Virus record (IMG/VR): IMGVR_UViG_3300021256_000072
Location: 32,001-96,000 of that record
DNA: 64,000 bases
Source of the DNA: a virus
Lineage: Duplodnaviria; Caudoviricetes
Reading direction: 5' to 3' (one strand)
The translations under genes were made by a program, and so were the position numbers. Below are positions 46,451-63,729 of this stretch, piece by piece. The notes under the pieces are model-generated. The model made no database searches and was not told the origin of the DNA. It was given only the letters and a program-made list of their open reading frames with translations. Numbering within the stretch: position 1 is the first letter of the stretch; each line of letters opens with the position of its first letter.

Positions 46451-46807
46451 TTAATACTTTGATTCGTCGACTATAGTTACAAATCCCTCATTATCAATTA
46501 TCTTTTTTAGAACTTTAAAGAACGTTGATTCAGTTATTGGTGCTGAAGCTGACATAGTAAAAATATCATATTCCTGTTCCGTATCTGTTCTAACTGAAGG
46601 TTGTGCTAGTCTAATTACATCTGAGACATCATACTGATTATATTCTAAAGCTATTGGAAAATACACTTTAAACTTTTTAAGATCTTTACTAACACTTATT
46701 GAATCACTTGAAATTTCAGGAGAGATTTCATATTCAAAGATTTTCTGCATTTCAAGTTTTTTCTCAAAAGGGTCCTTCGCACCTTTTTTATTTCTTAATA
46801 TTATCAT
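46451..46807 (-). CDS. Small protein with basic MIILRNKK start; hypothetical
   Basis: 118 aa; start resembles MIILRR of 53985-54293. Confidence 0.55.
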   Translation of the reverse strand: MIILRNKKGAKDPFEKKLEMQKIFEYEISPEISSDSISVSKDLKKFKVYFPIALEYNQYDVSDVIRLAQPSVRTDTEQEYDIFTMSASAPITESTFFKVLKKIIDNEGFVTIVDESKY

Positions 46808-48084
46808 GTGAATATATTAAACTTAATCTTTGTTGAAAATAGCTTATTAAGTAGGTATTCAAACTCACTAATTGTGTCTAGAACATACGAATAAACTATT
46901 GCACCACCAGTATTAGTTCTATTGAGTTTTAATCTCATCGGGTTATAAAAAATTTCATCAATTAATTTATAGTCCTCTCCTTTAGCTGGCGTTGTTACTA
47001 TAAATCTTCCATTAATCAGCGTAATATTATTAGGAGCTGATTTATCATTTACAGTATAATGATTTTTATAATGTAACTTTATTAGCTCTTTTTCTAAGAA
47101 AGAGTTTCCGTATTCGCTCCTAGCTCTTTTTAAACCGTACTTAGCAGATTCTATAGAAGTTATTTTCTCTACAGATTTTCTAATTAACCCAATAATAGCA
47201 GAAGTACCTATTTTCTTCAAACTGCAGCCGCCTCTAGACTCATCTATTATATATTGTCCAGTTTGCCCGAGTATCCTGGCTACATCACTTTTAGATAGCT
47301 CGGGCACACTAAAAGACTTCTGACCTCCTTCTCCGGTTTCGTCATCCCTCTTTTCAGCAGCGTCTTGAATTCGATGTAATACTATGGCTTTCTCATTCAT
47401 TAAATTTATTTTTGTTTGTAATTTTTGAGAAAGCTCCATGATGAAGTTAGTAATTACATTATAATTTGTAAATGTTATATCAATGCTATAAGAATTAACA
47501 GTTCGATTTATAAGTTTAGAGCTGTAGTTAACCCCATAATATTTTTGAGTATAGAAATCTAAAATTTTAGAACATTCATCAATCTCTTTATCGTTCATTC
47601 CAAATGTATACATAGTCAAGCTATCATTTTGAATTGCGATATTGATTTTATAGTCTGTTACGTTTCTATCATTAAAGCTGAATTTTTCATCCATAGTCAT
47701 TCTATTATCAATGGAATCACCTACGCTTAATCCAGCTACTCTATACATTCCGAACTGTCTCCTGATATTTCTGTCAATTTCCTGAAACTTTATGGTTTTC
47801 ATTGGCCTGTGCATGTAGTTTTGGAAGAATTTTAACATTACAGCAGATGCAAAACCAACTTTAGCTCCTTGAATACCTCCTTGTAATCCTCCACCTATTA
47901 CTGAAGAATTATCATCAAAATGTCCCAAAACTCCTCCAGCCGCAGCCCCTATTCCTGATCCTATTAAAACCCCATTCTTAATATTATGAAATAAACTTGG
48001 GATTTCTTCCATATCTTTTGTCCCAGTAAAGTGACCCTCTGGAATTGTAAAGTTTTTTCTCTTTATTTTAAAAATTTTTCCCAT
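46804..48084 (-). CDS. Leader-bearing glycine-zipper protein, apparently two tandem units
   Basis: KIKRKNFT leader; GVLIGSGIGAAAGGVLG; internal QKSFS. KNFTIPEGHFTGTK resembles KEFSIQEGGFRGTK of 54320-55021. Confidence 0.65.
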   Translation of the reverse strand: MGKIFKIKRKNFTIPEGHFTGTKDMEEIPSLFHNIKNGVLIGSGIGAAAGGVLGHFDDNSSVIGGGLQGGIQGAKVGFASAVMLKFFQNYMHRPMKTIKFQEIDRNIRRQFGMYRVAGLSVGDSIDNRMTMDEKFSFNDRNVTDYKINIAIQNDSLTMYTFGMNDKEIDECSKILDFYTQKYYGVNYSSKLINRTVNSYSIDITFTNYNVITNFIMELSQKLQTKINLMNEKAIVLHRIQDAAEKRDDETGEGGQKSFSVPELSKSDVARILGQTGQYIIDESRGGCSLKKIGTSAIIGLIRKSVEKITSIESAKYGLKRARSEYGNSFLEKELIKLHYKNHYTVNDKSAPNNITLINGRFIVTTPAKGEDYKLIDEIFYNPMRLKLNRTNTGGAIVYSYVLDTISEFEYLLNKLFSTKIKFNIFT

Positions 48085-48086
48085 AA

Positions 48087-48707
48087 TTATCTTCTAATAA
48101 ATTTACCTACTTTTCCTAACAGCCCTCGAAGTTGTCCTGCTCCTTTCTTTACGGTATTATCAAGCTTCTTTCCAACTTCTCCTACTTTTTCTGGATTTAT
48201 TTTATTAGCCAGTTTTTCTGATCCAACTACACTATCTACTTTTTCAATAGACTTCTTTAATATAGGAATGTTATTAATTGTTTTCTCGGCAAATTTACTT
48301 CCAGCATTGGCCCAAGCTAGTGGATTCCAAGGTTGACCTGCCATTATTCCAGGAGCTATTCTAATTCCATTCACGATAGTTGAATTAACTGGAGCTTTTA
48401 TAGTATTTTTTACAAAACTAGCTCCGCCCTTAGATATAGTTTCTGCCGGTTTGTTGGTAAGATCTCTAGCAATTCCCTTTACATTGTTGATAGTATTGTT
48501 AGTGTTAGTAATAATTTGCCTTTTACTATTAATATCCAATGGTTTAGTCGGATTAGTCAAACGGTGCTTTATTACCCCATAATTATTCAGACCATTTTTA
48601 GCTGTAAGTTGTATTTTCGACCCTAGAGTTCTATCTGGCTGCTGTTTATTAACCCAAATATCTCTTAAGCTAACAAATATTTTCTGTCTTGGTATTCTCA
48701 TAGTCAT
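48087..48707 (-). CDS. Basic leader-bearing hypothetical protein
   Basis: MTMRIPRQKIFV start; Lys-rich amphipathic C-terminus. Confidence 0.6.
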   Translation of the reverse strand: MTMRIPRQKIFVSLRDIWVNKQQPDRTLGSKIQLTAKNGLNNYGVIKHRLTNPTKPLDINSKRQIITNTNNTINNVKGIARDLTNKPAETISKGGASFVKNTIKAPVNSTIVNGIRIAPGIMAGQPWNPLAWANAGSKFAEKTINNIPILKKSIEKVDSVVGSEKLANKINPEKVGEVGKKLDNTVKKGAGQLRGLLGKVGKFIRR

Positions 48708-48716
48708 TAAATCTAT

Positions 48717-49451
48717 TTACTCAACAAGTTCGCCAGACCAACCTGATTGTAGTGCAAATTGATCACATCTACTCCTAAGTTCCTGATAAGCTGCATCTAC
48801 GTTCCCTAATATATCAATAGACATTCCTGGCAGCTGTACACTGGCTTTAAGTTGACGTATATAATCTAACAAGTGACATAAACAAAGGTCTAAAAAATAA
48901 TCTCCTTTAGGTCCTCCGTCTTCTACATTCATCCAGTAAATAGCTGCTTTATTACTATCTTCATTGAAAGTTTTATCAGGAAGAAAATCAGGAATTATAG
49001 GTCTAGAACAGATTGCCTTAATGTAAAATCTGTCATTAAGTGGAAGGTCCCCCATGAATAAATAAGGTCTTCTATAGTCAGTAAAGTAAGAATAACTACC
49101 AGCCATCGGATACGAGCCCATAGATCTCCATTTAGGAATACAGTTAGGCACTAAAACTATCTGATCTTCTGAAATTAAACAATCTAACCATAAAGTAAAG
49201 TTAGATTTAATTTCATAATATCCCTCCATTCCATAACATGTTGACATCTGATCTCTACTTATCTTCATCTCCAATATTAATGGATTGGTTCTTTCAAATT
49301 CACGAAGAGCGTTTTTTATAATTTCTAATAAAATTTGATCACAGCTAAGAGAGTTATTTATGCTGAGAATCTCATTAAGAGAGTCAACAGCAATTAAAGC
49401 AGATCTAATAAAGATCTTTCTTTTTAAATCTGTTAATAATGTTTTTTCCAT
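48717..49451 (-). CDS. Neck protein / head-tail adaptor (T4 gp13-like)
   Basis: 244 aa; C-terminal SVQLPGMSID resembles the gp13-family VQLPGG motif. Confidence 0.6.
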   Translation of the reverse strand: MEKTLLTDLKRKIFIRSALIAVDSLNEILSINNSLSCDQILLEIIKNALREFERTNPLILEMKISRDQMSTCYGMEGYYEIKSNFTLWLDCLISEDQIVLVPNCIPKWRSMGSYPMAGSYSYFTDYRRPYLFMGDLPLNDRFYIKAICSRPIIPDFLPDKTFNEDSNKAAIYWMNVEDGGPKGDYFLDLCLCHLLDYIRQLKASVQLPGMSIDILGNVDAAYQELRSRCDQFALQSGWSGELVE

Positions 49452-49525
49452 CTCTGTTCCTCTTTTTTCTTGTATAAGAAGATAGTGATAAAAATTAATA
49501 TCTTGTAAGGAATTTAACTTTTCTA

Positions 49526-49537
49526 TCTATTTATAAG
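49526..49537 (-). promoter_or_regulatory. Putative late promoter CTTATAAATAGA (contains TATAAATA)
   Basis: Identical to 50837-50848; lies just after a terminator and upstream of the neck gene. Confidence 0.55.
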
Positions 49538-49544
49538 AAATAAG

Positions 49545-49582
49545 AAAAAATAAGTAGGGAATTGTATTTACCCTACTTATTT
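49545..49582 (-). terminator. Intrinsic terminator after 49599-50192
   Basis: AAATAAGTAGGG...CCCTACTTATTT 12-bp inverted repeat with U-tract on the minus strand. Confidence 0.8.
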
Positions 49583-49598
49583 AAAATATTTTATTTAC

Positions 49599-50192
49599 TT
49601 ATTCCCTGTCTCGATTTTTGTAATCATATAAACCTTTCGCAAGAGCCGAAGCACCTACAATACCAAGGCCTACGCCAACAGGGACAGCTGCTCTCCTCCG
49701 GTTTAGAGCTTTCTTTTCCAGACCTTCAACTGTCTTAAGTCTCTTATGTTCTGTTGTATTTCTCAAGTAGCTAAGGCGCTCTTTTTCAGCCTCTGTTAAC
49801 ATACCTGACTTTTCCAAATCAAGTATTCCTTTTCCACTCTCTAGCGCACGCATTTTAGCAACTTCACCACCTCTTTGCGCATCTCTAAGTACGTCCTTTT
49901 TGAGTCTATTAAGATCGGCTTCATACAATTCTTGGAGTGACTTCTTTAGTTTTCCTGCCTTTTCTAATTTATCTGCTGCTTTCTTTGAGAGCTTGTAAGA
50001 TCCATAGCCGCCAAGACCACTAATACTAGCTCCAGCACCTATACCAATCCCAGGTTTATATTTACCATACGTGCTTTCCTCATCAGCCTCTTCAGCCTCT
50101 TCAGCAAATTCCTTCTGAGCATACATATAACCTTCACAAAAAGCTCTTTCTTCTAAATCAGAAATAGAGCTAAAATTTTTTCTTATTCTCAT
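49599..50192 (-). CDS. Leader-bearing two-helix glycine-zipper protein (cassette A)
   Basis: MRIRKNFSSISDLEERAFCEGYMYAQKEFA leader; GIGIGAGASISGLGG and VGVGLGIVGASALA segments. Confidence 0.7.
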   Translation of the reverse strand: MRIRKNFSSISDLEERAFCEGYMYAQKEFAEEAEEADEESTYGKYKPGIGIGAGASISGLGGYGSYKLSKKAADKLEKAGKLKKSLQELYEADLNRLKKDVLRDAQRGGEVAKMRALESGKGILDLEKSGMLTEAEKERLSYLRNTTEHKRLKTVEGLEKKALNRRRAAVPVGVGLGIVGASALAKGLYDYKNRDRE

Positions 50193-50263
50193 ATTTTGTT
50201 TATGGTTTTAATTTATTTTCTTCTATCTATAAGAAATGTGAAGAAAAAAAAGAGGAATTAATC
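50101..50263. repeat. About 160-bp imperfect direct repeat, copy A (hairpin remnant + promoter + first 30 codons)
   Basis: Aligns with 50718-50879 from tcagcaaatt to gaggaattaatc; near-identical in the coding part, diverged in the 5' UTR. Confidence 0.9.
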
Positions 50264-50812
50264 TTCATTCTGACTATCTTTTTCAGCTAGCCAATCTTCA
50301 TAAGTCATCTTATTATTTGCCTTTTTATTGGCTCTATATATACCACCTGCGGTAAGTGCAGCAGCGCCTAAACCAAGTCCTCGATTGGTTAGTATAATTT
50401 TTTTAGTCCCTTTCTTTACAGCCGCCATTCCTTTCTTTCTTACCTCTCTTACTTTCTCTGCTTGTTCTGGCGTAAGACTCATACTTGTGTTTCCCGATTC
50501 TAATATGGCTTTATCTACACTATCAGCTACTTTTTTAATCAACTCTTTTTCATATTTATAAATCTTAGGCTCCATTTGCACATGGTTAGCAATACCTGCA
50601 GTACCCAATGCACTCATAACATAACCGCCCATGCGCTTCTTTTTGCGTTTTTCCATCTCATGCTCATAGGCCTGTCTGTCCAGTCTTTCCGCCATAGTAT
50701 CATTAGTAAGAATTTGATCAGCAAATTCTCTCTGAGCATACATATAACCCTCACAAAAAGCTCTTTCTTCTAATTCAGAAATAGAGCTAAAATTTCTTTT
50801 TTCTATTCTCAT
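50258..50812 (-). CDS. Leader-bearing two-helix membrane protein (cassette B)
   Basis: MRIEKRNFSSISELEERAFCEGYMYAQREFA leader; GGYVMSALGTAGIA and GLGLGAAALTAGG segments. Confidence 0.7.
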   Translation of the reverse strand: MRIEKRNFSSISELEERAFCEGYMYAQREFADQILTNDTMAERLDRQAYEHEMEKRKKKRMGGYVMSALGTAGIANHVQMEPKIYKYEKELIKKVADSVDKAILESGNTSMSLTPEQAEKVREVRKKGMAAVKKGTKKIILTNRGLGLGAAALTAGGIYRANKKANNKMTYEDWLAEKDSQNED

Positions 50813-50879
50813 ATTTTATTTACGTATTTTTTATAATCTATTTATAAGAAATGTGAAGAAAAAAAGAGAGGAATTAATC
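50718..50879. repeat. About 160-bp imperfect direct repeat, copy B
   Basis: Aligns with 50101-50263. Confidence 0.9.
50837..50848 (-). promoter_or_regulatory. Putative late promoter CTTATAAATAGA
   Basis: Contains TATAAATA about 27 nt upstream of the ATG at 50812; variant CTTATAGATAGA at 50222-50233. Confidence 0.55.
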
Positions 50880-50884
50880 CTCTC
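50859..50884 (-). terminator. Intrinsic terminator after the sheath gene
   Basis: Plus strand GAGAGGA-ATTAA-TCCTCTC preceded by A7 (U7 on the minus strand). Confidence 0.75.
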
Positions 50885-50937
50885 CTTCTCCTTAGATAAG
50901 GTATATGATTAGTTCTGAGTTAAGTCAATTATTTATA

Positions 50938-53310
50938 TTACTCCTCACTAGAAATATCCATACCTACGTCAAATGCTCTATTAACTACAGTAATATACTT
51001 AGTATCTCTAGAGTATTTCACATTTATTGTTACTTTAACCTTACTCTGTCTTGCTAAGGTTTCATCATACTTGCAAATAACCTTGTAATCGTCTACATTA
51101 TACTTGCAAGGCTGAATAACAGTGACAAAGTAATATTTTATAACGTCTTCTACATTATTACAAAGAACTTCTGAAATCTTCTGACCTATAAACTGTTTTA
51201 ATAACTGTGGGCAAGCTTTAGAAATACGTATCATAAGACGAGAGTTTCCATCGCTGCTCATTACAGTGTCTTCAGATTGCTTTGTATAATTGTCGTTCAT
51301 TATCCAAGTACTGGTCTGAATATCCCAAGTAACAGTATTTACTCGCTTGGTTAATAACAATTGTCTAGTTTTCTTATTAAACTCACATACTGGAGATTGA
51401 TATTGAACTAGACCGCCACCCTGACCAAATAATCCACGGAACTCTTCATTGTTTTTACGATTTCTTGCTACTGCTTCCCAATAAATTACGCTTGGAGATA
51501 TGTAATTTTCCCAACCTAAGGTACTTGAATCTAAATCCCAAGGGGCTGATGCATATAGTTTATAGGAATTTTGCGATAACTTCGAAATAGAATTACCAAT
51601 GGACATATAATTAGTAGAATTTATCGTACTAATTGGATAGAAGTAGTTTCCATTGATTGCCAAGTTAGCCATATAACTCTGGAAAGATGGAGTAGTATTT
51701 CCAAGATCAGACAAACCTTCAGTTACATAAACTTCGTCTTGTTCAAGTAAATCTATTGCATTTAATAAATCGGTATTACTAGCTTTTAATATCATGTATC
51801 TAGTTGGATCTACCTTTAAATCACAATAGATTTGGTCTTCTCCATTAGTTACATATAAATAATAATTACCGTTTACATTAGCAACAGTGCTTCCAACAAC
51901 AAAAGTGTCTTTAACTTCGTCTGATACTTGGTATAACTCTGACATAGAAGATTTCACTATATCAGCAGTTATTTTTCCAGTAGGTAATTCTGAGATTTCT
52001 TCCCAAGTAGTATTATCTGAGTTATATCCAGAGTAGTTTATTCCAAGATCATGAAGGTCTTTTGGTAAATTAAACCCAATCATGCTCATTTGCTTAACTA
52101 ACTCATCTACAGTAATATCACCCCTTCCTGAAATATTACCTACATTAAAGAATAGTACCTCTCCACTCAAGCTAGGATCATAGATAGCCACTTCGAAGAA
52201 ATCTCTGGCCTTTACAGCATCACTAACTTCAGCAGTACCGCCTTTAGTGAAAGTATCCAAAACTTCTTTAATAGGAGTAACCGCAGATTTACCAGTTGAA
52301 GTAAGAGATGTAAGTGAGTCTAGATTATTAGTAACTACTGCATCATGGTTAAATCTTCTAATTCTTACTCTGAGGTCACTAGCACTATTATAAGTATTTA
52401 CTGCATAATATTCAGGAGCCTCAAAATTAGAAAGCGAATTAGCATCGAGCAAGTTTAAAGATCCCCAATTTTCCTCTTTATTTTGTAAGTACTCTTCTAT
52501 TACAGATTGATTAGGTTCAGTCCAATCAGGTTGACAGAATACTAGATAACAGTTACCATTAGGGCATCTACTATCTGAGGTATCCAGCAATCTTTCTGCC
52601 ATATATACTTCCTCAAACTTAACTGACTTGATGTTGTTTGAAGTAGCATCTACCTCATTAGCATCTGAAGCATCAACATCTGAATAGAATTTATATGATG
52701 GAGAAAAGAATACTGAGGACTCATTCATTATGTTAACGAGTTCTGGAAGATTGTTAGCTGGAATATCATAAGCAGGACCATTATCTGTTACTCTATTTCC
52801 AACAATTCCAACTCCTTCAATATTTACCGACCAACCATCTGTAGAGTGGGCAGCTGAATCCCCGTCGAAATCTATTACAATTTTAAAAGGGGCTATCTGT
52901 TTTAGAATTGATCCATCTTTTAATAAATAGGTATTAGTATCATTTTTTTCAGCTGATTTTACAAAGTTTACTCCTTTGCTTTTTCCAGCACGAACAACTA
53001 ATAACGTATTTGATCCTGCCAATCTGTAAGCATTTGTCCACATTGTTGCAGGAAGAGTTGGATCATCATTTTCACCACAATCATACAGACTATTTAAACT
53101 ATCTATATAATCTTTAGTAATATCCTGAGATGCAAATTTATTTCTAAAATCCTTTTGACCTGTAACTAATGTTGGAACGGAAGGACCGGCATCTGCAAAG
53201 ATAACACAGCCAACTACTAAATCCTCACCAGTTGTAGGATTAATGGCTGTCGTTTTAACTTCTTCTCGAACTTTTACATAAGGTTCAAGAGTTTCTGTCC
53301 ATTGTGCCAT
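50938..53310 (-). CDS. Tail sheath protein
   Basis: 790 aa. PYVKVREE start, AGPSVPTLVT, LLVVRA; C-terminal RLMIRISK...QFIGQ...VKVTINVKYSRDTKYITV sheath pattern. Confidence 0.8.
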   Translation of the reverse strand: MAQWTETLEPYVKVREEVKTTAINPTTGEDLVVGCVIFADAGPSVPTLVTGQKDFRNKFASQDITKDYIDSLNSLYDCGENDDPTLPATMWTNAYRLAGSNTLLVVRAGKSKGVNFVKSAEKNDTNTYLLKDGSILKQIAPFKIVIDFDGDSAAHSTDGWSVNIEGVGIVGNRVTDNGPAYDIPANNLPELVNIMNESSVFFSPSYKFYSDVDASDANEVDATSNNIKSVKFEEVYMAERLLDTSDSRCPNGNCYLVFCQPDWTEPNQSVIEEYLQNKEENWGSLNLLDANSLSNFEAPEYYAVNTYNSASDLRVRIRRFNHDAVVTNNLDSLTSLTSTGKSAVTPIKEVLDTFTKGGTAEVSDAVKARDFFEVAIYDPSLSGEVLFFNVGNISGRGDITVDELVKQMSMIGFNLPKDLHDLGINYSGYNSDNTTWEEISELPTGKITADIVKSSMSELYQVSDEVKDTFVVGSTVANVNGNYYLYVTNGEDQIYCDLKVDPTRYMILKASNTDLLNAIDLLEQDEVYVTEGLSDLGNTTPSFQSYMANLAINGNYFYPISTINSTNYMSIGNSISKLSQNSYKLYASAPWDLDSSTLGWENYISPSVIYWEAVARNRKNNEEFRGLFGQGGGLVQYQSPVCEFNKKTRQLLLTKRVNTVTWDIQTSTWIMNDNYTKQSEDTVMSSDGNSRLMIRISKACPQLLKQFIGQKISEVLCNNVEDVIKYYFVTVIQPCKYNVDDYKVICKYDETLARQSKVKVTINVKYSRDTKYITVVNRAFDVGMDISSEE

Positions 53311-54319: not shown

Positions 54320-55021
54320 TTATCTCCTATTCCCAGTAATAACATTTAATTTAAATCCACTAGAAATTAATAGATCTACTACTTTACCTATAGTACCTTC
54401 AACAACAGACACTTCTACTTCATACGAATTTTTTCCAATTTTCACTGCAGTATAGTCTGCATTCTTAAAAGAAGAGCAATAAGAATCTAAAGCTTCATTT
54501 AAGCCAGTTAATTCTCTAGTATTTAAATCATTAACGTACAATACCAAAACACCACCACTACAGTAAATAGAGAGGGCGTATTTCTTCGGATCATCATCAA
54601 TAGCGTAGACAATACCAGCCGCACTTGGCCCATGGTTAATATTCTTAGTAGTTTTTCTTGAAATATTAAACTCCTCGCCAGTTGTTGGATCTACTTCACG
54701 AGAACTTGTAACAATTTCTTCGCTATCTGGATCCATAGTGCTGTTGTAATGTCTATCTAAGTAATTGATTATTGTAAAGGAATTAGTCTTAACTCTGGAT
54801 GAATTAAATATTGACTTTCTAGCAATATTAGCCATCCAAGTAGTAAAGGCGCCCACAGCAGCACCAATCCCAACCCCCACTATATTTCCTTTTCCAATAA
54901 CTGCACCAGCAATAGCTCCTGCTGCGGTTCCTGGAAGATAGGACTTATCTTTAGGTTGAATTTTTGTGCCACGGAATCCACCTTCTTGTATTGAAAATTC
55001 TTTTTGTCTAAATTTAATCAT
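54320..55021 (-). CDS. Leader-bearing glycine-zipper protein
   Basis: MIKFRQKEFS leader; GTAAGAIAGAVIG..VGVGIGAAVGA. Confidence 0.7.
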   Translation of the reverse strand: MIKFRQKEFSIQEGGFRGTKIQPKDKSYLPGTAAGAIAGAVIGKGNIVGVGIGAAVGAFTTWMANIARKSIFNSSRVKTNSFTIINYLDRHYNSTMDPDSEEIVTSSREVDPTTGEEFNISRKTTKNINHGPSAAGIVYAIDDDPKKYALSIYCSGGVLVLYVNDLNTRELTGLNEALDSYCSSFKNADYTAVKIGKNSYEVEVSVVEGTIGKVVDLLISSGFKLNVITGNRR

Positions 55022-61497: not shown

Positions 61498-63729
61498 TTA
61501 TTTTATACTACCGGTAAGCCAAGTTACAAAAGGACTAGAACTAGGTTTTTCGTCGCTATTGAGGACTTCGCAATCAGAGAACTGAGCCTCTTGCAAATCC
61601 TGTTCTTGACCCTGTATAGGAGCTTGTTTAGCTTGAAGAATCTGGTTAGCAACTTCCTGACCAGCCTGCTGAATAGCGTTTACAGTTTGATCAGCAATAT
61701 CTTCGATAGCTTCAACTGAAGGAAGCGCTGGCTGATTTTGCTGACTCTCTACAGATTCAACTGCAATTGGATTACCATTAGCATCAAGGCCTATAGGAGC
61801 TGGGTTACCCTCTGCATCAAACAATTGAACTACATCCTGCTGCTGTGCTGATTGAATATCTGCGAAGTACTTATTGAGCATTGAAGTAGTTGTTGAAGTA
61901 GGTTCTGAATATTCCTTCTCCTCTTCTTTATCCTCGTCCTCGTCAGTATCTTCTACGCTAAGACCTTCAGTAAGCTTGTCGGCTACTTCTTCACTAATAG
62001 GGTTTGTATTTATGGTATCGTCGTCCATAATAGCCATAGTGAACTCGCCTGACTTCTTGTCTTCAATAACTGCTATTTCATCATCTACTGGAGTAATAAC
62101 TACATCATCGTCTTCGATCTGTTCACCAGTTTCAATAGCTGATTCAATATCGTTTTCATCAGCTTCACCAGAGAACAAGCGCTCCTGATAACCTGTCAAC
62201 TCTTCAGACTCAGAGAAGAACTTAGTTTCATCATCACTAACGTAGACATCTTCGTCATCTAAATCTGAGTAAAGACGGTAGTCATCTTCAGCATCTTCAT
62301 CACAATAAAGATCACCGCAGTCAGAATACATTGACTCGTTTAAATAGAGATCATCTTCGTCATCTAAATCTGAGTAAAGACGGTAGTCATCCTCGTCATA
62401 GTAATCTGAGTACTCTTTTTCCTCTTCATCCTCGTCGTCTTCGTCTTCATCCTTGACATAAAGACCCTCCATTAGATCATCAGCTTCGTCTTCCGAAATA
62501 GCTTTGCAGTCCAATTCATCACCATCAATAGTAACTTTAGTGAACTCGCCAGTCTCTTTGTCTTCGATAACTGCAGTTTCACTATCTACTGGAGTGATAA
62601 TTTCGCCATCTTTTTCAATCTGCTCCCCATTTTCGATAGCATCTTCAATTTCGTTTTGTGAAGTCTCGATACCCTCTTCAGCCTCAGAATACAATCTTTC
62701 CATATATTCTGTACGACTTGAATAGAACTTAGTACAGTAAACGACATGATCTGAGAACTCAGTCTGAACTGGCTCTTCAATATCATCAGCATTTTCTGCA
62801 CCTAGAGACTGTAATAAATCGATGGCATAATCTCTAGCTTGGTCTTGATCTTCAAAGATCTCAACGGCTTCTACACCACCTGCAGTGAGTTGGTCTACGA
62901 GTTCCTGAGCAGAATCTAACTCGTATTCTGGAGCATCAACAATTACATGGTTCACTGGATCTACACCAACTACATGAAGAGCCTCATACTGCTCTTCGTT
63001 GCTGAATGATCTCTCGTCACCACCGTCTTTTGAAGATAACTCGTCTATTTGCATTTCATCATTGGTAAGCGTTACTTTCGCTTGATCACCTGTTGACTTA
63101 GAGGTTACGACTACTGAATCATCGTCTACTTTCTCAATTTTAAGATCACCTACATTTGCAGTCTCCTCACTTTCAATAACTTCTGAGAAAACTCTCTCGC
63201 AAAACTCCTGATCAGAGAAAATCTTTAATACGATACTGTTGTCAGTAAAAACGCTAAATTCACGTTCATCACAACTGCCATCACAAGGAGCTCCTACGCC
63301 TGCTGCGTGTTCCTCGACAGTTGGCTCGAAACCTGCCATAGGGTTTAAACCTCCATCTGGAGCGTTTGGTGAAATAACTCCAGTCTCAAGATGTGACCAC
63401 AGATCTTCATCTTCTGCACTTGGGAAATGTCCTGGGATAGTGCCATCTACTTCCGGATGGGCAAATCTCTCTAGATTTTTCGTAGGAGCAGCGTAAAGAT
63501 CAAAATTACCATCTTCAGCCTGTTCTGCAATCGTTACTTCACCGTTATCTTTATCAATAACAGAGACACTGCCATCTCCGTTATCTTCATATCGAACTTC
63601 ATCTGTATCTACGGCACCATTTTTCTTAGCATCCTGTATATCCTGTGCTACCTGTGCCAATAGCTCTTCGTCCTTTTCATCTGTTGCAGAGAAAAGTCTA
63701 GACATAAATCTAGTTTTAGTAGTATTCAT
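61498..63729 (-). CDS. Acidic prohead scaffold/core protein with repeated domains
   Basis: 743 aa, very Asp/Glu-rich, directly upstream of the capsid gene. Four related ~55-65 aa units; 16 [FY]S sites. Confidence 0.7.
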   Translation of the reverse strand: MNTTKTRFMSRLFSATDEKDEELLAQVAQDIQDAKKNGAVDTDEVRYEDNGDGSVSVIDKDNGEVTIAEQAEDGNFDLYAAPTKNLERFAHPEVDGTIPGHFPSAEDEDLWSHLETGVISPNAPDGGLNPMAGFEPTVEEHAAGVGAPCDGSCDEREFSVFTDNSIVLKIFSDQEFCERVFSEVIESEETANVGDLKIEKVDDDSVVVTSKSTGDQAKVTLTNDEMQIDELSSKDGGDERSFSNEEQYEALHVVGVDPVNHVIVDAPEYELDSAQELVDQLTAGGVEAVEIFEDQDQARDYAIDLLQSLGAENADDIEEPVQTEFSDHVVYCTKFYSSRTEYMERLYSEAEEGIETSQNEIEDAIENGEQIEKDGEIITPVDSETAVIEDKETGEFTKVTIDGDELDCKAISEDEADDLMEGLYVKDEDEDDEDEEEKEYSDYYDEDDYRLYSDLDDEDDLYLNESMYSDCGDLYCDEDAEDDYRLYSDLDDEDVYVSDDETKFFSESEELTGYQERLFSGEADENDIESAIETGEQIEDDDVVITPVDDEIAVIEDKKSGEFTMAIMDDDTINTNPISEEVADKLTEGLSVEDTDEDEDKEEEKEYSEPTSTTTSMLNKYFADIQSAQQQDVVQLFDAEGNPAPIGLDANGNPIAVESVESQQNQPALPSVEAIEDIADQTVNAIQQAGQEVANQILQAKQAPIQGQEQDLQEAQFSDCEVLNSDEKPSSSPFVTWLTGSIK
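62247..62391. repeat. Perfect 40-bp direct repeat (62247-62286 and 62352-62391) encoding DDYRLYSDLDDED
   Basis: catcttcgtcatctaaatctgagtaaagacggtagtcatc occurs twice. Confidence 0.9.

Follow-up and report, generated by a model that had tools for sequence, protein, structure and literature searches.

Organization of the locus

Two neighboring genes of an uncultured giant phage, here designated A and B, lie on the minus strand of the window, which is the whole 64,000-nucleotide stretch of DNA that was analyzed (Table 1). Each encodes a conserved leader followed by a C-terminal part referred to as the cargo. The source record is 106 kb long and 29% complete according to CheckV. The runs containing the sequenced stretch are goat and bovine gut metagenomes, and relatives of the phage were found on contigs of up to ~400 kb. 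Of the words sampled from the stretch, two RNA runs, X19 and X20, contained small shares only. Both genes sit within a structural-gene block, with the protease and scaffold-like genes ~11-15 kb off on the same strand.

Table 1. Positions of genes, repeats and signals at the A/B locus, in coordinates of the window
Feature	Position	Strand	Description or evidence
Gene A	49599..50192	-	ORF, 197 aa; leader plus A-type cargo
Gene B	50258..50812	-	ORF, 184 aa; leader plus B-type cargo
Leader of gene A, codons 1-30	50103..50192	-	MRIRKNFSSISDLEERAFCEGYMYAQKEFA; alignment with gene B leader
Leader of gene B, codons 1-31	50720..50812	-	MRIEKRNFSSISELEERAFCEGYMYAQREFA; alignment with gene A leader
Hypervariable middle of gene B	50386..50595	-	other letters in contigs of runs X2, X3 and X4
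Repeat unit, copy A	50101..50266		leader, promoter-like element, hairpin remnant; BLASTN
Repeat unit, copy B	50718..50884		leader, promoter-like element, intact hairpin; BLASTN
Promoter-like element, copy 1	50837..50850	-	TTCTTATAAATAGA; TATAAATA core begins 34 nt upstream of gene B ATG
Promoter-like element, copy 2	50222..50235	-	TTCTTATAGATAGA; TATAGATA core begins 39 nt upstream of gene A ATG
Promoter-like element, copy 3	49526..49539	-	TTCTTATAAATAGA; upstream of 244-aa gene (48717-49451)
Intact hairpin, then U7 run	50859..50891	-	RNA fold -17.7 kcal/mol, 14-bp stem
Decayed hairpin copy at end of gene B	50250..50266	-	fold -6.4 kcal/mol, z 0.11
Terminator hairpin downstream of gene A	49548..49582	-	fold -14.4 kcal/mol, z -5.1; 0 shuffles as good

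A and B share a repeat unit of ~165 bp in which 30-31 codons are preceded by a CTTATA(A/G)ATAGA element and, in intact or remnant form, a terminator hairpin. This repeat had been described in a first-pass annotation made from the letters and was confirmed using BLASTN, in which the two copies are 85.9% identical over 170 columns and differ by both substitutions and indels. An ungapped core of 84 nt (50101-50184 versus 50718-50801) reaches 93% identity. The annotated state of the hairpins was also upheld. The one upstream of B is intact, and its stem core (50866-50884) was picked up by a terminator scan, whereas the copy at the end of B, with a fold of -6.4 kcal/mol and a z of 0.1, is decayed and holds the TAA stop of gene B (50258-50260) in its former loop. 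The intact hairpin is likely the intrinsic terminator of the upstream 790-aa gene and, at the same time, the upstream end of repeat copy B.

The proposed two-copy layout describes the A/B unit correctly but is incomplete: gene A has a terminator of its own, a third copy of the element is present, and a third leader-like copy lies within a 203-aa gene ~16 kb off, outside the window. The latter gene has a C-leader-C layout (C being a third type of cargo), and its DNA for GYMYAQREFA is identical at 30 of 32 nt. The third element precedes the 244-aa gene that comes next after A and that is without a long leader; this element is a third repeat available for unequal recombination.

The sequence TTCTTATARATAGA is present at 50222-50235 and 50837-50850, and the shorter core CTTATA[AG]ATAG has three copies in the whole 106-kb record, namely the elements at 49526, 50222 and 50837. 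At a related locus, L005, the first leader gene has a similar element, TTCTTATATATAAGAA, upstream of it. Judging from its position and conservation, CTTATA(A/G)ATAGA may be a promoter; within the 106-kb record it is not a genome-wide promoter motif. The TATAAATA core was considered as a T4-like genome-wide late promoter and rejected, with 32 occurrences versus ~34 estimated from base composition. Only five of the 32 are intergenic, three of these at the A/B locus. A sigma-70-type promoter scan performed no better than on shuffled sequence.

The leader and its family

The leader consists of two parts, after which the variable C-terminal part begins. The first part, M-R-I-x-K-(R)-N-F-S, is the local form of a short tag, M-x-I/F-x-R-x-K-x-F/Y-S/T, found at the N-terminus of more than 20 proteins encoded in the structural-gene region, many of which also have Gly/Ala-rich stretches. 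The second part is a 22-residue helix, SISELEERAFCEGYMYAQ(K/R)EFA. Both A and B have the motif [KR]x[FY]S in residues 5-9. Three motif copies had been proposed in the leader, of which K/RNFS alone fits the strict form, while RAFC and K/REFA are looser variants. Following [KR]x[FY] in four head proteins of the phage, S was found in 24 of 32 occurrences, A in only 3 cases and C never.

Among 1.84 billion proteins, a leader profile identified 118 cluster representatives (50% identity clusters) at E ≤ 1e-3, and the parts after the leader form at least 79 BLASTP-distinct clusters. Of 138 proteins, 131 have the leader at the N-terminus and seven have it internally; the internal leaders read Q-N-F-S, with the basic residue absent. 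The A, F, G and Y of AFxxGY are invariant among 106 aligned members, C follows AF in 108 of 132 leaders, and at least one [KR]x[FY][ST] site precedes the conserved helix in 126 of 132. The leader is a family and not a local oddity.

Homologue searches placed the same leader on B-type cargo (P0001-P0014 and P0017), on A-type cargo (P0019-P0021) and on the third cargo, C (P0018), as well as inside C-leader-B fusion proteins (P0015 and P0016). One further leader protein has a cargo with a SUKH-domain match. The source phage record holds three leader copies and other records hold five, six, four and two; tandem arrays with differing cargos occur at L010 and L012. The leader is thus a portable module that stands ahead of many unrelated C-terminal parts, in several copies per phage. 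The exchangeable payloads that had been suggested for this module, and the variation in copy number (2-6 per record) and cargo that had been expected of the genome and related phages, were both found. P0007, P0012 and P0015 are encoded together on one 50,270-bp contig, and P0003 and P0020 on an 18,948-bp contig.

The leader family had no match in Pfam, PHROGs, the PDB or GenBank phages. Neither A nor B has a Pfam match at E ≤ 0.01, and Pfam and PHROGs returned nothing for A, B and most of their neighbors. The locus, a leader gene, the protease and the 790-aa protein all lacked a match among GenBank phages at the DNA or protein level. PDB sequence searches found nothing for the leader-family alignment or a 481-aa protein and only noise for the 790-aa protein, which also had no match in IMG/VR. 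A search with the B-type alignment recovered one locus in IMG/VR and one in a metagenome collection, and the ESM Atlas contained only unnamed viral clusters and generic helical-hairpin look-alikes.

Cargos of genes A and B

The A-type cargo consists, in order, of an acidic linker, a Gly-zipper, a charged middle, a second Gly-zipper and a YDYKNRDRE tail. The AlphaFold2 model of the gene B protein (pLDDT 76.6) is a helical hairpin with helices at 13-105 and 115-162 and two Gly-zipper stretches; the tag (residues 1-9) has a pLDDT below 50, and the helix begins at residue 13. Orthologues of B are full length at 89-41% identity, and the columns of the hypervariable middle of B (50386..50595) are also variable in alignment A2 of B-type proteins.

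The absence of shared sequence downstream of the leaders, as annotated, was substantiated. The N-termini of the two proteins are identical at 27 of 33 positions, beyond which BLASTP gives just a Gly-rich patch (12/29). Alignment of the A-type and B-type cargos alone using hhalign gave 16 columns, in the Gly-zipper, at 63% probability. Global homology of the two cargos was rejected on this ground. Given that, in each protein, a charged middle is flanked by two Gly-zipper stretches, A and B may nonetheless be very old paralogues whose 5′ ends have been homogenized, instead of unrelated cargos.

It could be supposed that A and B serve as lysis or membrane proteins, whether holin-like or inserting into the membrane in another way, and that the 5′ unit is a duplicated strong late promoter and translation start. 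The proteins are small, with two Gly/Ala-rich, semi-hydrophobic stretches and a charged C-terminal tail; a muramidase endolysin is encoded within 20 kb; and weak Gly-zipper Pfam matches occur in one of 106 leader proteins (PF13441, E 5e-4) and in one neighboring protein. We regard this explanation as very improbable, however, given that the hydrophobic stretches span 15-18 residues with a high Gly and Ala content, that the model is a soluble-looking long helical hairpin, that more than 20 tagged proteins are too many for a lysis cassette, and that the endolysin is not adjacent but ~19 kb off, at genome positions 101353-102147. Clear transmembrane helices and endolysin adjacency were not found for A or B, and neither protein has a significant profile match to the Gly-zipper membrane family (PF13441/PF05433).

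Recent copying and rearrangement of the unit

Where the same residue is encoded, the leaders of A and B differ in 1 of 19 codons and the two leaders of L005 in 1 of 13, versus means of 34% for other leader pairs within one record and 40% between records. By our own arithmetic, the probability of at most 1 difference in 19 at a rate of 0.35 is ~0.003. Copying of the unit of promoter-like element and leader between A and B is therefore recent and took place by gene conversion or unequal crossing-over, with the unit that follows the 790-aa gene as the source and the neighboring gene as the target. Recent copying explains why the DNA is nearly identical, why similarity is lost abruptly past the leader and why a hairpin remnant holds the stop of B. 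The annotated end of DNA homology, after EFA, is correct in the source genome but does not extend to L005, whose two leaders cease to be homologous earlier, after EGY.

Relatives differ in the arrangement of the locus. At L005 the flanking genes are the same, and the block is inverted and carries a fourth cargo, D, in addition to B. Arrangements in other samples were determined, for the contig-covered parts of the stretch, from Logan contigs placed at ≥80% likeness, these being contigs and not reads or complete genomes. On contigs from three other studies the terminator after A is joined directly to the 3′ end of B (X11, side 238; also X2 and X3), and on X2 and X3 contigs the promoter-leader unit comes right after the 3′ end of A; these joints imply the order A then B. 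The X2 joint 50093->50720 is a hint that leader variants go with position in the locus and not with the cargo. X3 and X4 contigs have an internal-type leader upstream of B cargo, which is the layout of the fusions P0015 and P0016. At least three arrangements of the locus are thus known, in addition to fused forms. The three promoter-like elements and the three near-identical leader 3′ ends are recombination substrates, and the swapped order, inverted block, different cargo and fused cargo-leader-cargo genes are recombination products in relatives. These arrangements and the recent copying seen at synonymous sites agree with the expansion and contraction by recombination suggested in the first-pass annotation. 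The same annotation had named, as a finding that would speak against it, relatives that always carry the same two orthologues. Close relatives do often retain full-length orthologues of A and B, so that turnover is moderate and not rampant.

An assembly artefact, meaning a chimeric or duplicated metagenomic join, might be suspected in a metagenome-assembled fragment, the more so as contigs of other runs break at the repeat. The likelihood of this is negligible in our judgment: the two copies are set apart by substitutions and indels, each gene is intact with orthologues in many samples, a 9135-bp contig from the independent run X4 is colinear over 48000-50090, and L005 has the same two-cassette design.

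Plain tandem duplication followed by drift, in which low-complexity C-termini of paralogues diverged while protein selection kept the N-terminus and neither recombination nor cargo exchange took place, would agree with the common plan of two Gly-zippers, a charged middle and a basic-acidic tail, with the weak common C-terminal zipper in hhalign and with the full-length orthologues in close relatives. It is already disfavored, and we consider it improbable. The same protein constraint leaves ~34-40% of same-residue codons different in other leader pairs, as opposed to 1 of 19 here, and identity reaches into non-coding DNA, namely the promoter-like element and the hairpin remnant. Furthermore, C, D and dozens of other cargos, including the one with the SUKH-domain match, carry the same leader, and gene order, orientation and fusion state vary among relatives.

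Tag motif, scaffold-like protein and protease

The motif [KR]x[FY]S is enriched in proteins of the same phage. An acidic, 743-aa scaffold-like protein has 13 copies versus 0.2 by shuffles, a 290-aa protein has five versus 0.3, and a 407-aa protease has four versus 0.26, all four of them in its linker and three of the four invariant or near-invariant across its family. In the 481-aa protein the motif occurs twice, at residues 37 and 54. The T4 rule, [LIVM]xE, is not enriched in the scaffold-like protein (14 versus 21 expected). Hydrophobic-x-Glu was accordingly rejected as the cut site here, and cut specificity cannot be borrowed from T4. The motif [KR]x[FY]S could also be a binding motif instead of a cut site.

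The 407-aa protein is made up of an assemblin/gp21-fold N-domain, a disordered linker with conserved candidate sites and a helical C-terminal domain. The N-domain of its model matched T4 gp21 (PDB 5JBL) with an E of 1e-4, a probability of 1.0 and a target-normalized TM of 0.61, and the protein has a weak PHROG match to head maturation proteases (phrog_207).

Proposed interpretation as a head-cargo system

We think it probable, with room for doubt, that A and B represent two cassettes of a head-cargo system, with a capsid-targeting and processing leader joined to exchangeable cargo; cleavage and head packaging of the two proteins are what we infer. The tag and helix would steer the newly made protein into the core of the assembling prohead. 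A T4 gp21-like prohead protease would then process it at [KR]x[FY]S, and perhaps at the looser RAFC and K/REFA sites as well, releasing a small helical-hairpin Gly-zipper protein that would be retained in the head and probably ejected with the DNA. At the DNA level, the unit of hairpin, promoter-like element and leader has been copied onto the neighboring gene. The earlier interpretation is, overall, partly supported.

Alternatively, the leader may be a functional N-terminal domain, such as a partner-binding or oligomerization helix, of a large family of small helical proteins, kept in the mature protein, which need not be in the head at all. A spacer would hardly be as conserved as the 22-residue helix, with its invariant AFxxGY in 106 members and its C after AF in 108 of 132. 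In addition, the second and third sites depart from strict [KR]x[FY]S, the helix is found inside proteins too, and the gene B model runs the helix straight into the cargo. Nevertheless, the leader is N-terminal in 131 of 138 proteins and is preceded by [KR]x[FY][ST] in 126 of 132; its first residues match both the tag of more than 20 structural-region proteins and the motif that is concentrated in the protease linker, in the scaffold-like protein and at the N-terminus of the 481-aa protein; and the genes lie in the structural block and share their strand with those of the protease and the scaffold-like protein. We consider this alternative rather unlikely. It is compatible with cleavage at the first site alone.

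If cleavage in the head-cargo system is confined to the first site, the mature protein retains the 22-residue helix, which is then an adaptor rather than a propeptide. It is tentatively hypothesized that the helix (L/E)ERAFCEGY(M/E)YAQREFA is an undescribed portable docking adaptor: once the tag had been removed at [KR]x[FY]S, the helix would remain attached and dock onto a fixed receptor of the prohead core, any open reading frame placed behind it by recombination would have its product loaded and injected, and the promoter-leader unit would serve as a natural means of cassette exchange at leader boundaries. In that event, sequence could be enough to identify the packaged proteins across an entire clade of 300-400-kb gut phages, and the tag could be put to use for loading foreign proteins.

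Were the leader a loading signal, the head cargo, probably injected, of an uncultured gut phage clade could be listed from sequence alone. The scale would be at least 118 protein clusters with the long leader, together with more than 20 short-tagged proteins in the source genome. It would also follow that a gp21-fold protease can work with a non-glutamate motif and that a phage moves promoter and loading signal together as one recombining DNA unit. The tag, helix and protease offer a testable entry into head assembly of phages that cannot yet be grown.

Comparison with known systems

T4 internal proteins have in common only a capsid targeting sequence of 10-19 residues that is removed by gp21, and their genes are polymorphic among T-even phages (PMC3012670, PMC9026906). 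The comparison with the variable T4 IPI locus made in the first-pass annotation proved apt, the model of the protease here matching gp21. As with the T4 targeting sequence (IPI, IPII, IPIII and Alt), a short N-terminal peptide is common to small proteins that are otherwise unrelated, the genes belong to the late or structural region, the phage encodes a gp21-fold prohead protease according to the model match, the same short motif abounds in an acidic scaffold-like protein, and the set of cargos varies between related phages (L005, X2, X3, X4 and X11; 2-6 copies per record). Unlike in T4, the enriched motif is [KR]x[FY]S and not hydrophobic-x-Glu, the leader is a tag of 8-10 residues plus a conserved 22-residue helix that the protein may retain, the leader and the promoter-like element move together as a single stretch of DNA, and fused cargo-leader-cargo genes occur. 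The proteins have no sequence relationship to those of T4.

In the giant phages SPN3US, phiKZ and 201phi2-1, propeptides of head and ejection proteins are reported to be cut by gp21-like proteases, to be mostly long (111-254 residues) and to be cleaved C-terminal to a three-residue P3-P2-P1 motif with Ser preferred at P1′ (PMC10052503). In contrast to the leader described here, those propeptides are not one shared portable module, and cassette-like DNA repeats are not known to have been reported for them (PMC10052503). The system proposed here resembles theirs in having a giant-phage head with many internal proteins, several motif copies per propeptide and self-processing of the protease.

Herpesvirus UL26-type proteins are organized as protease, linker and scaffold. 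The 407-aa protein resembles them in its assemblin/gp21-fold N-domain, disordered linker with candidate sites and helical C-domain, a likeness of fold and layout only, which concerns the protease and not the leader cassettes. The weaker fold matches of the 407-aa model include the proteases of HCMV, KSHV and EBV.

Methods

Strong selection on the leader protein makes DNA identity alone weak proof of copying, and for this reason only codons encoding the same residue were compared between leaders. A leader profile of 36 positions was built from six leaders and searched in 1.84 billion representative proteins. Counts of the motif [KR]x[FY]S were judged against composition shuffles. Locus arrangements in relatives were taken from assembled Logan contigs (not reads) of four other studies (X2, X3, X4 and X11), placed on 48000-52000 at a likeness of at least 80%.

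Results

Genome setting

The source record is a 106,463 bp IMG/VR virus with a CheckV completeness of 29%, and the window covers its bases 32001-96000. The window has a G+C content of 33%, and nearly all of its genes are on the minus strand, arranged in long blocks with little space between genes. Runs containing the window stretch come from goat and bovine gut metagenomes, and a search of GenBank phages with this phage's sequences found no relative. Contigs carrying relatives of the 407-aa protease (see table) reach ~400 kb.

Coordinates of features at the cassette locus and among the putative head genes (window coordinates unless stated otherwise)
Feature	Position	Strand	Remarks
Gene B, 184 aa	50258-50812	minus	ORF
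Gene A, 197 aa	49599-50192	minus	ORF
Third promoter-like element	49526-49539		upstream of 244-aa gene; motif search
Strong terminator of gene A	49548-49582		own hairpin
743-aa very acidic protein	61498-63729	minus	near protease; sites mostly (E/D)-[KR]-x-[FY]-S-(D/E)
290-aa protein	genome 95760-96632; window 63760 onward	minus	between protease and acidic protein
407-aa protein	genome 96632-97855 (L006:3633-4856); outside window	minus	gp21-like predicted N-domain
203-aa gene	genome 98034-98645 (L003:1234-1845); outside window	minus	cargo C, internal leader NFSERIYNDAFEAGYMYAQREFAEKEG, cargo C

A recently copied 5' unit

Genes B and A belong to a run of four minus-strand genes, in the order 790-aa gene, B, A and 244-aa gene. 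The tandem repeat described in the first-pass annotation is real: 50718-50884 and 50101-50266 align over 170 columns at 85.9%, their ungapped core of 84 nt being 93% identical, and have in common a hairpin, the element TTCTTATA(A/G)ATAGA and the first 30-31 codons. The hairpin 5' of B is intact (-17.7 kcal/mol, followed by U7); its copy at the end of B has decayed (-6.4 kcal/mol, z 0.1), and the TAA stop of B sits in the former loop. The core CTTATA[AG]ATAG occurs only three times in the 106-kb record, each time at this locus. Its position, and a similar element in a related two-cassette locus (L005), suggest that CTTATA(A/G)ATAGA is promoter-like.

The A and B proteins are identical at 27/33 N-terminal residues, and similarity is lost after the leader, as had been claimed: BLASTP finds only a Gly-rich patch (12/29), and when the cargos are compared by profile, the alignment covers no more than 16 columns, in the C-terminal Gly-zipper (63% probability). 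Gene B has a hypervariable central block (50386-50595): contigs of three other studies carry unrelated sequence there, about as long or shorter, while both gene ends stay conserved.

Among codons encoding the same residue, 1/19 differ between the A and B leaders and 1/13 between the two leaders of L005; mean differences are 34% for within-record and 40% for between-record leader pairs. By our own arithmetic, the chance of no more than one difference in 19 at a rate of 0.35 is ~0.003. The A/B identity extends to non-coding DNA, and only the upstream copy has a functional hairpin. To judge from these sequence comparisons, the unit was copied recently. The simplest history would be that gene conversion or unequal crossing-over placed a copy of the hairpin, promoter-like element and leader that follow the 790-aa gene on the gene next to them.

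A leader family with many cargos

The leader profile matched 118 clusters at E<=1e-3, all with the core (L/E)ERAFCEGY(E/M)YAQREFA. Ahead of it stands M-x-I-x-R-K-x-F-S, and many members have a second (E/K)(R/K)LYSTG there as well. In 131 proteins the leader forms the N-terminus, whereas 7 have it at an internal position; the parts that follow it, compared for 127 proteins, fall into 79 BLASTP clusters. Tandem arrays of leader genes with differing cargos occur in IMG/VR records of related phages (for example L010 and L012), and related phages carry 5, 6, 4 and 2 leader copies per record, against 3 in the record studied here. The leader defines a large, previously undescribed family. The clusters, arrays and differing copy numbers give good support, at family level, to the proposed reuse of one module with exchangeable payloads, and copy number and cargo vary among related phages as anticipated.

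Pfam searches of 106 members returned just one SUKH, one Gly-zipper and one SHOCT match. The SUKH match probably belongs to P0027, a 90-aa metagenome protein in which the leader is followed by an apparent start of an SMI1/KNR4 (SUKH) domain. In P0041 (52 aa), an A-type gene, the frame shifts right after the leader.

Homologues of gene B include full-length orthologues (89-41% identity) and proteins with the leader alone in common. The latter are A-type orthologues (P0019-P0021), a free gene with leader and C cargo (P0018), and two fusions in which an internal leader stands between C cargo and B cargo (P0015 and P0016). The 203-aa gene, ~16 kb further on from A and B, contains a third leader-like copy; over GYMYAQREFA its codons match the B leader at 30/32 nt.

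Rearranged loci in relatives

L005, from an 86-kb metagenome contig, is flanked by the same 790-aa and 244-aa genes, with the two-cassette block (L005:7366-8538) inverted between them. The block holds a B-type gene and a fourth cargo, D, of charged coiled-coil type without Gly-zippers. Its two leaders are identical over 40 nt and then over 18 nt more, and homology stops after EGY. The B-type gene and the 790-aa gene converge on a bidirectional terminator that they share, and the divergent promoter region contains the near-palindromic TTCTTATATATAAGAA.

An 822-bp contig of X11 joins 49591 directly to the stop of B at 50258 (shorter side 238 letters), and similar joins occur in X2 and X3, where contigs also place a promoter-leader unit within ~14-33 nt after the 3' end of A. 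Together these imply that A precedes B between the 790-aa and 244-aa genes, opposite to the order in the window, and the L005 arrangement is a simple inversion of this order. A adjoins the 244-aa gene in a 9135-bp contig of X4. B-type cargo contigs of X3 and X4 continue upstream into an internal-type leader (ERIYNEAFEA, EHIYNDAFEA), the layout of the C-leader-B fusions. These contigs show differences between relatives and are no measure of variation inside one population. Such rearrangements could plausibly have used the three promoter-like repeats and the three near-identical 3' ends of the leaders as substrates.

A shared tag and motif in putative head proteins

In the structural-gene region, over 20 proteins begin with the tag M-x-I/F-x-R-x-K-x-F/Y-S/T (e.g. 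MIKFRQKEFS, MVQFRQKNFT, MKILRQRFYS, MIIFRPKVFSS), which A and B bear as well. Observed and expected numbers of [KR]x[FY]S were 13 and 0.2 in the 743-aa protein (z 27.7), which is scaffold-like in composition and position near the protease, 5 and 0.3 in the 290-aa protein, and 4 and 0.26 in the 407-aa protein; a 481-aa protein has two sites, at residues 37 and 54. The 290-aa protein starts with two tandem tag copies (RRRLFSD and RRKLFSD) and shows weak signs of a zinc ribbon over residues 31-58.

Homologues of the 407-aa protein number more than 300. The N-domain of its model matches the T4 prohead protease gp21 (5JBL) with E 1e-4, probability 1.0 and a target-normalised TM of 0.61, and H49, H87 and S135 do not vary among 26 homologues. 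A disordered linker (181-260) with all four motif sites, 3/4 of them invariant or nearly so across the family, leads into a helical C-terminal domain, a layout similar to that of herpesvirus protease-scaffold fusions.

Many tagged proteins also carry a second recurring module at the C-terminus: a Gly-zipper, an aromatic residue and a basic-acidic tail (e.g. ...GLYDYKNRDRE and ...YYLYQKNKKND; window 46804-48084 and 54320-55021, L004:4367-7873).

Discussion

The distribution of [KR]x[FY]S is what would be expected of a maturation-protease site or a core-binding motif. It parallels processing in T4, whose gp21 cleaves the core protein gp22 and trims targeting peptides of 10-19 residues off the internal proteins (PMC9026906). 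The likeness to T4 internal proteins proposed in the first-pass annotation holds for a leader on variable cargo but not for the motif: the one enriched here uses no glutamate, and the T4 rule, hydrophobic-x-Glu, showed no enrichment in the proteins of this phage that were examined. Unlike in T4, the leader has two parts, and promoter-like element and leader move jointly as one recombining DNA unit. The A and B cassettes are real and probably represent a form of the T4-like system of capsid-targeting leaders on variable cargo.

Of three predicted cleavage sites, only the first, K/RNFS, agrees with the strict motif; the other two, RAFC and K/REFA, are conserved in the family but end in C or A rather than S, the residue that almost always follows [KR]x[FY] in head proteins. 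Across the family, [KR]AFC is present in 108/132 proteins, followed by [KR]x[FY]x in 119/132. Were the first site alone cut, the 22-residue helix would stay on the mature proteins as a common adaptor. The predicted model of B, with residues 1-9 at pLDDT below 50 and a long helix that begins at residue 13, spans the rest of the leader and passes into a helical hairpin, agrees with a leader helix either removed or kept. Judged by position around the turn, the two Gly-zipper stretches of B probably face each other.

Upstream of the window, at genome 6181-23945 on the plus strand, a tandem array of ~20 paralogues starting MTEKEAEDLCRMVRIGVDLSKPKYNYHPKT presents another case of conserved 5' ends and variable 3' parts in the same genome.
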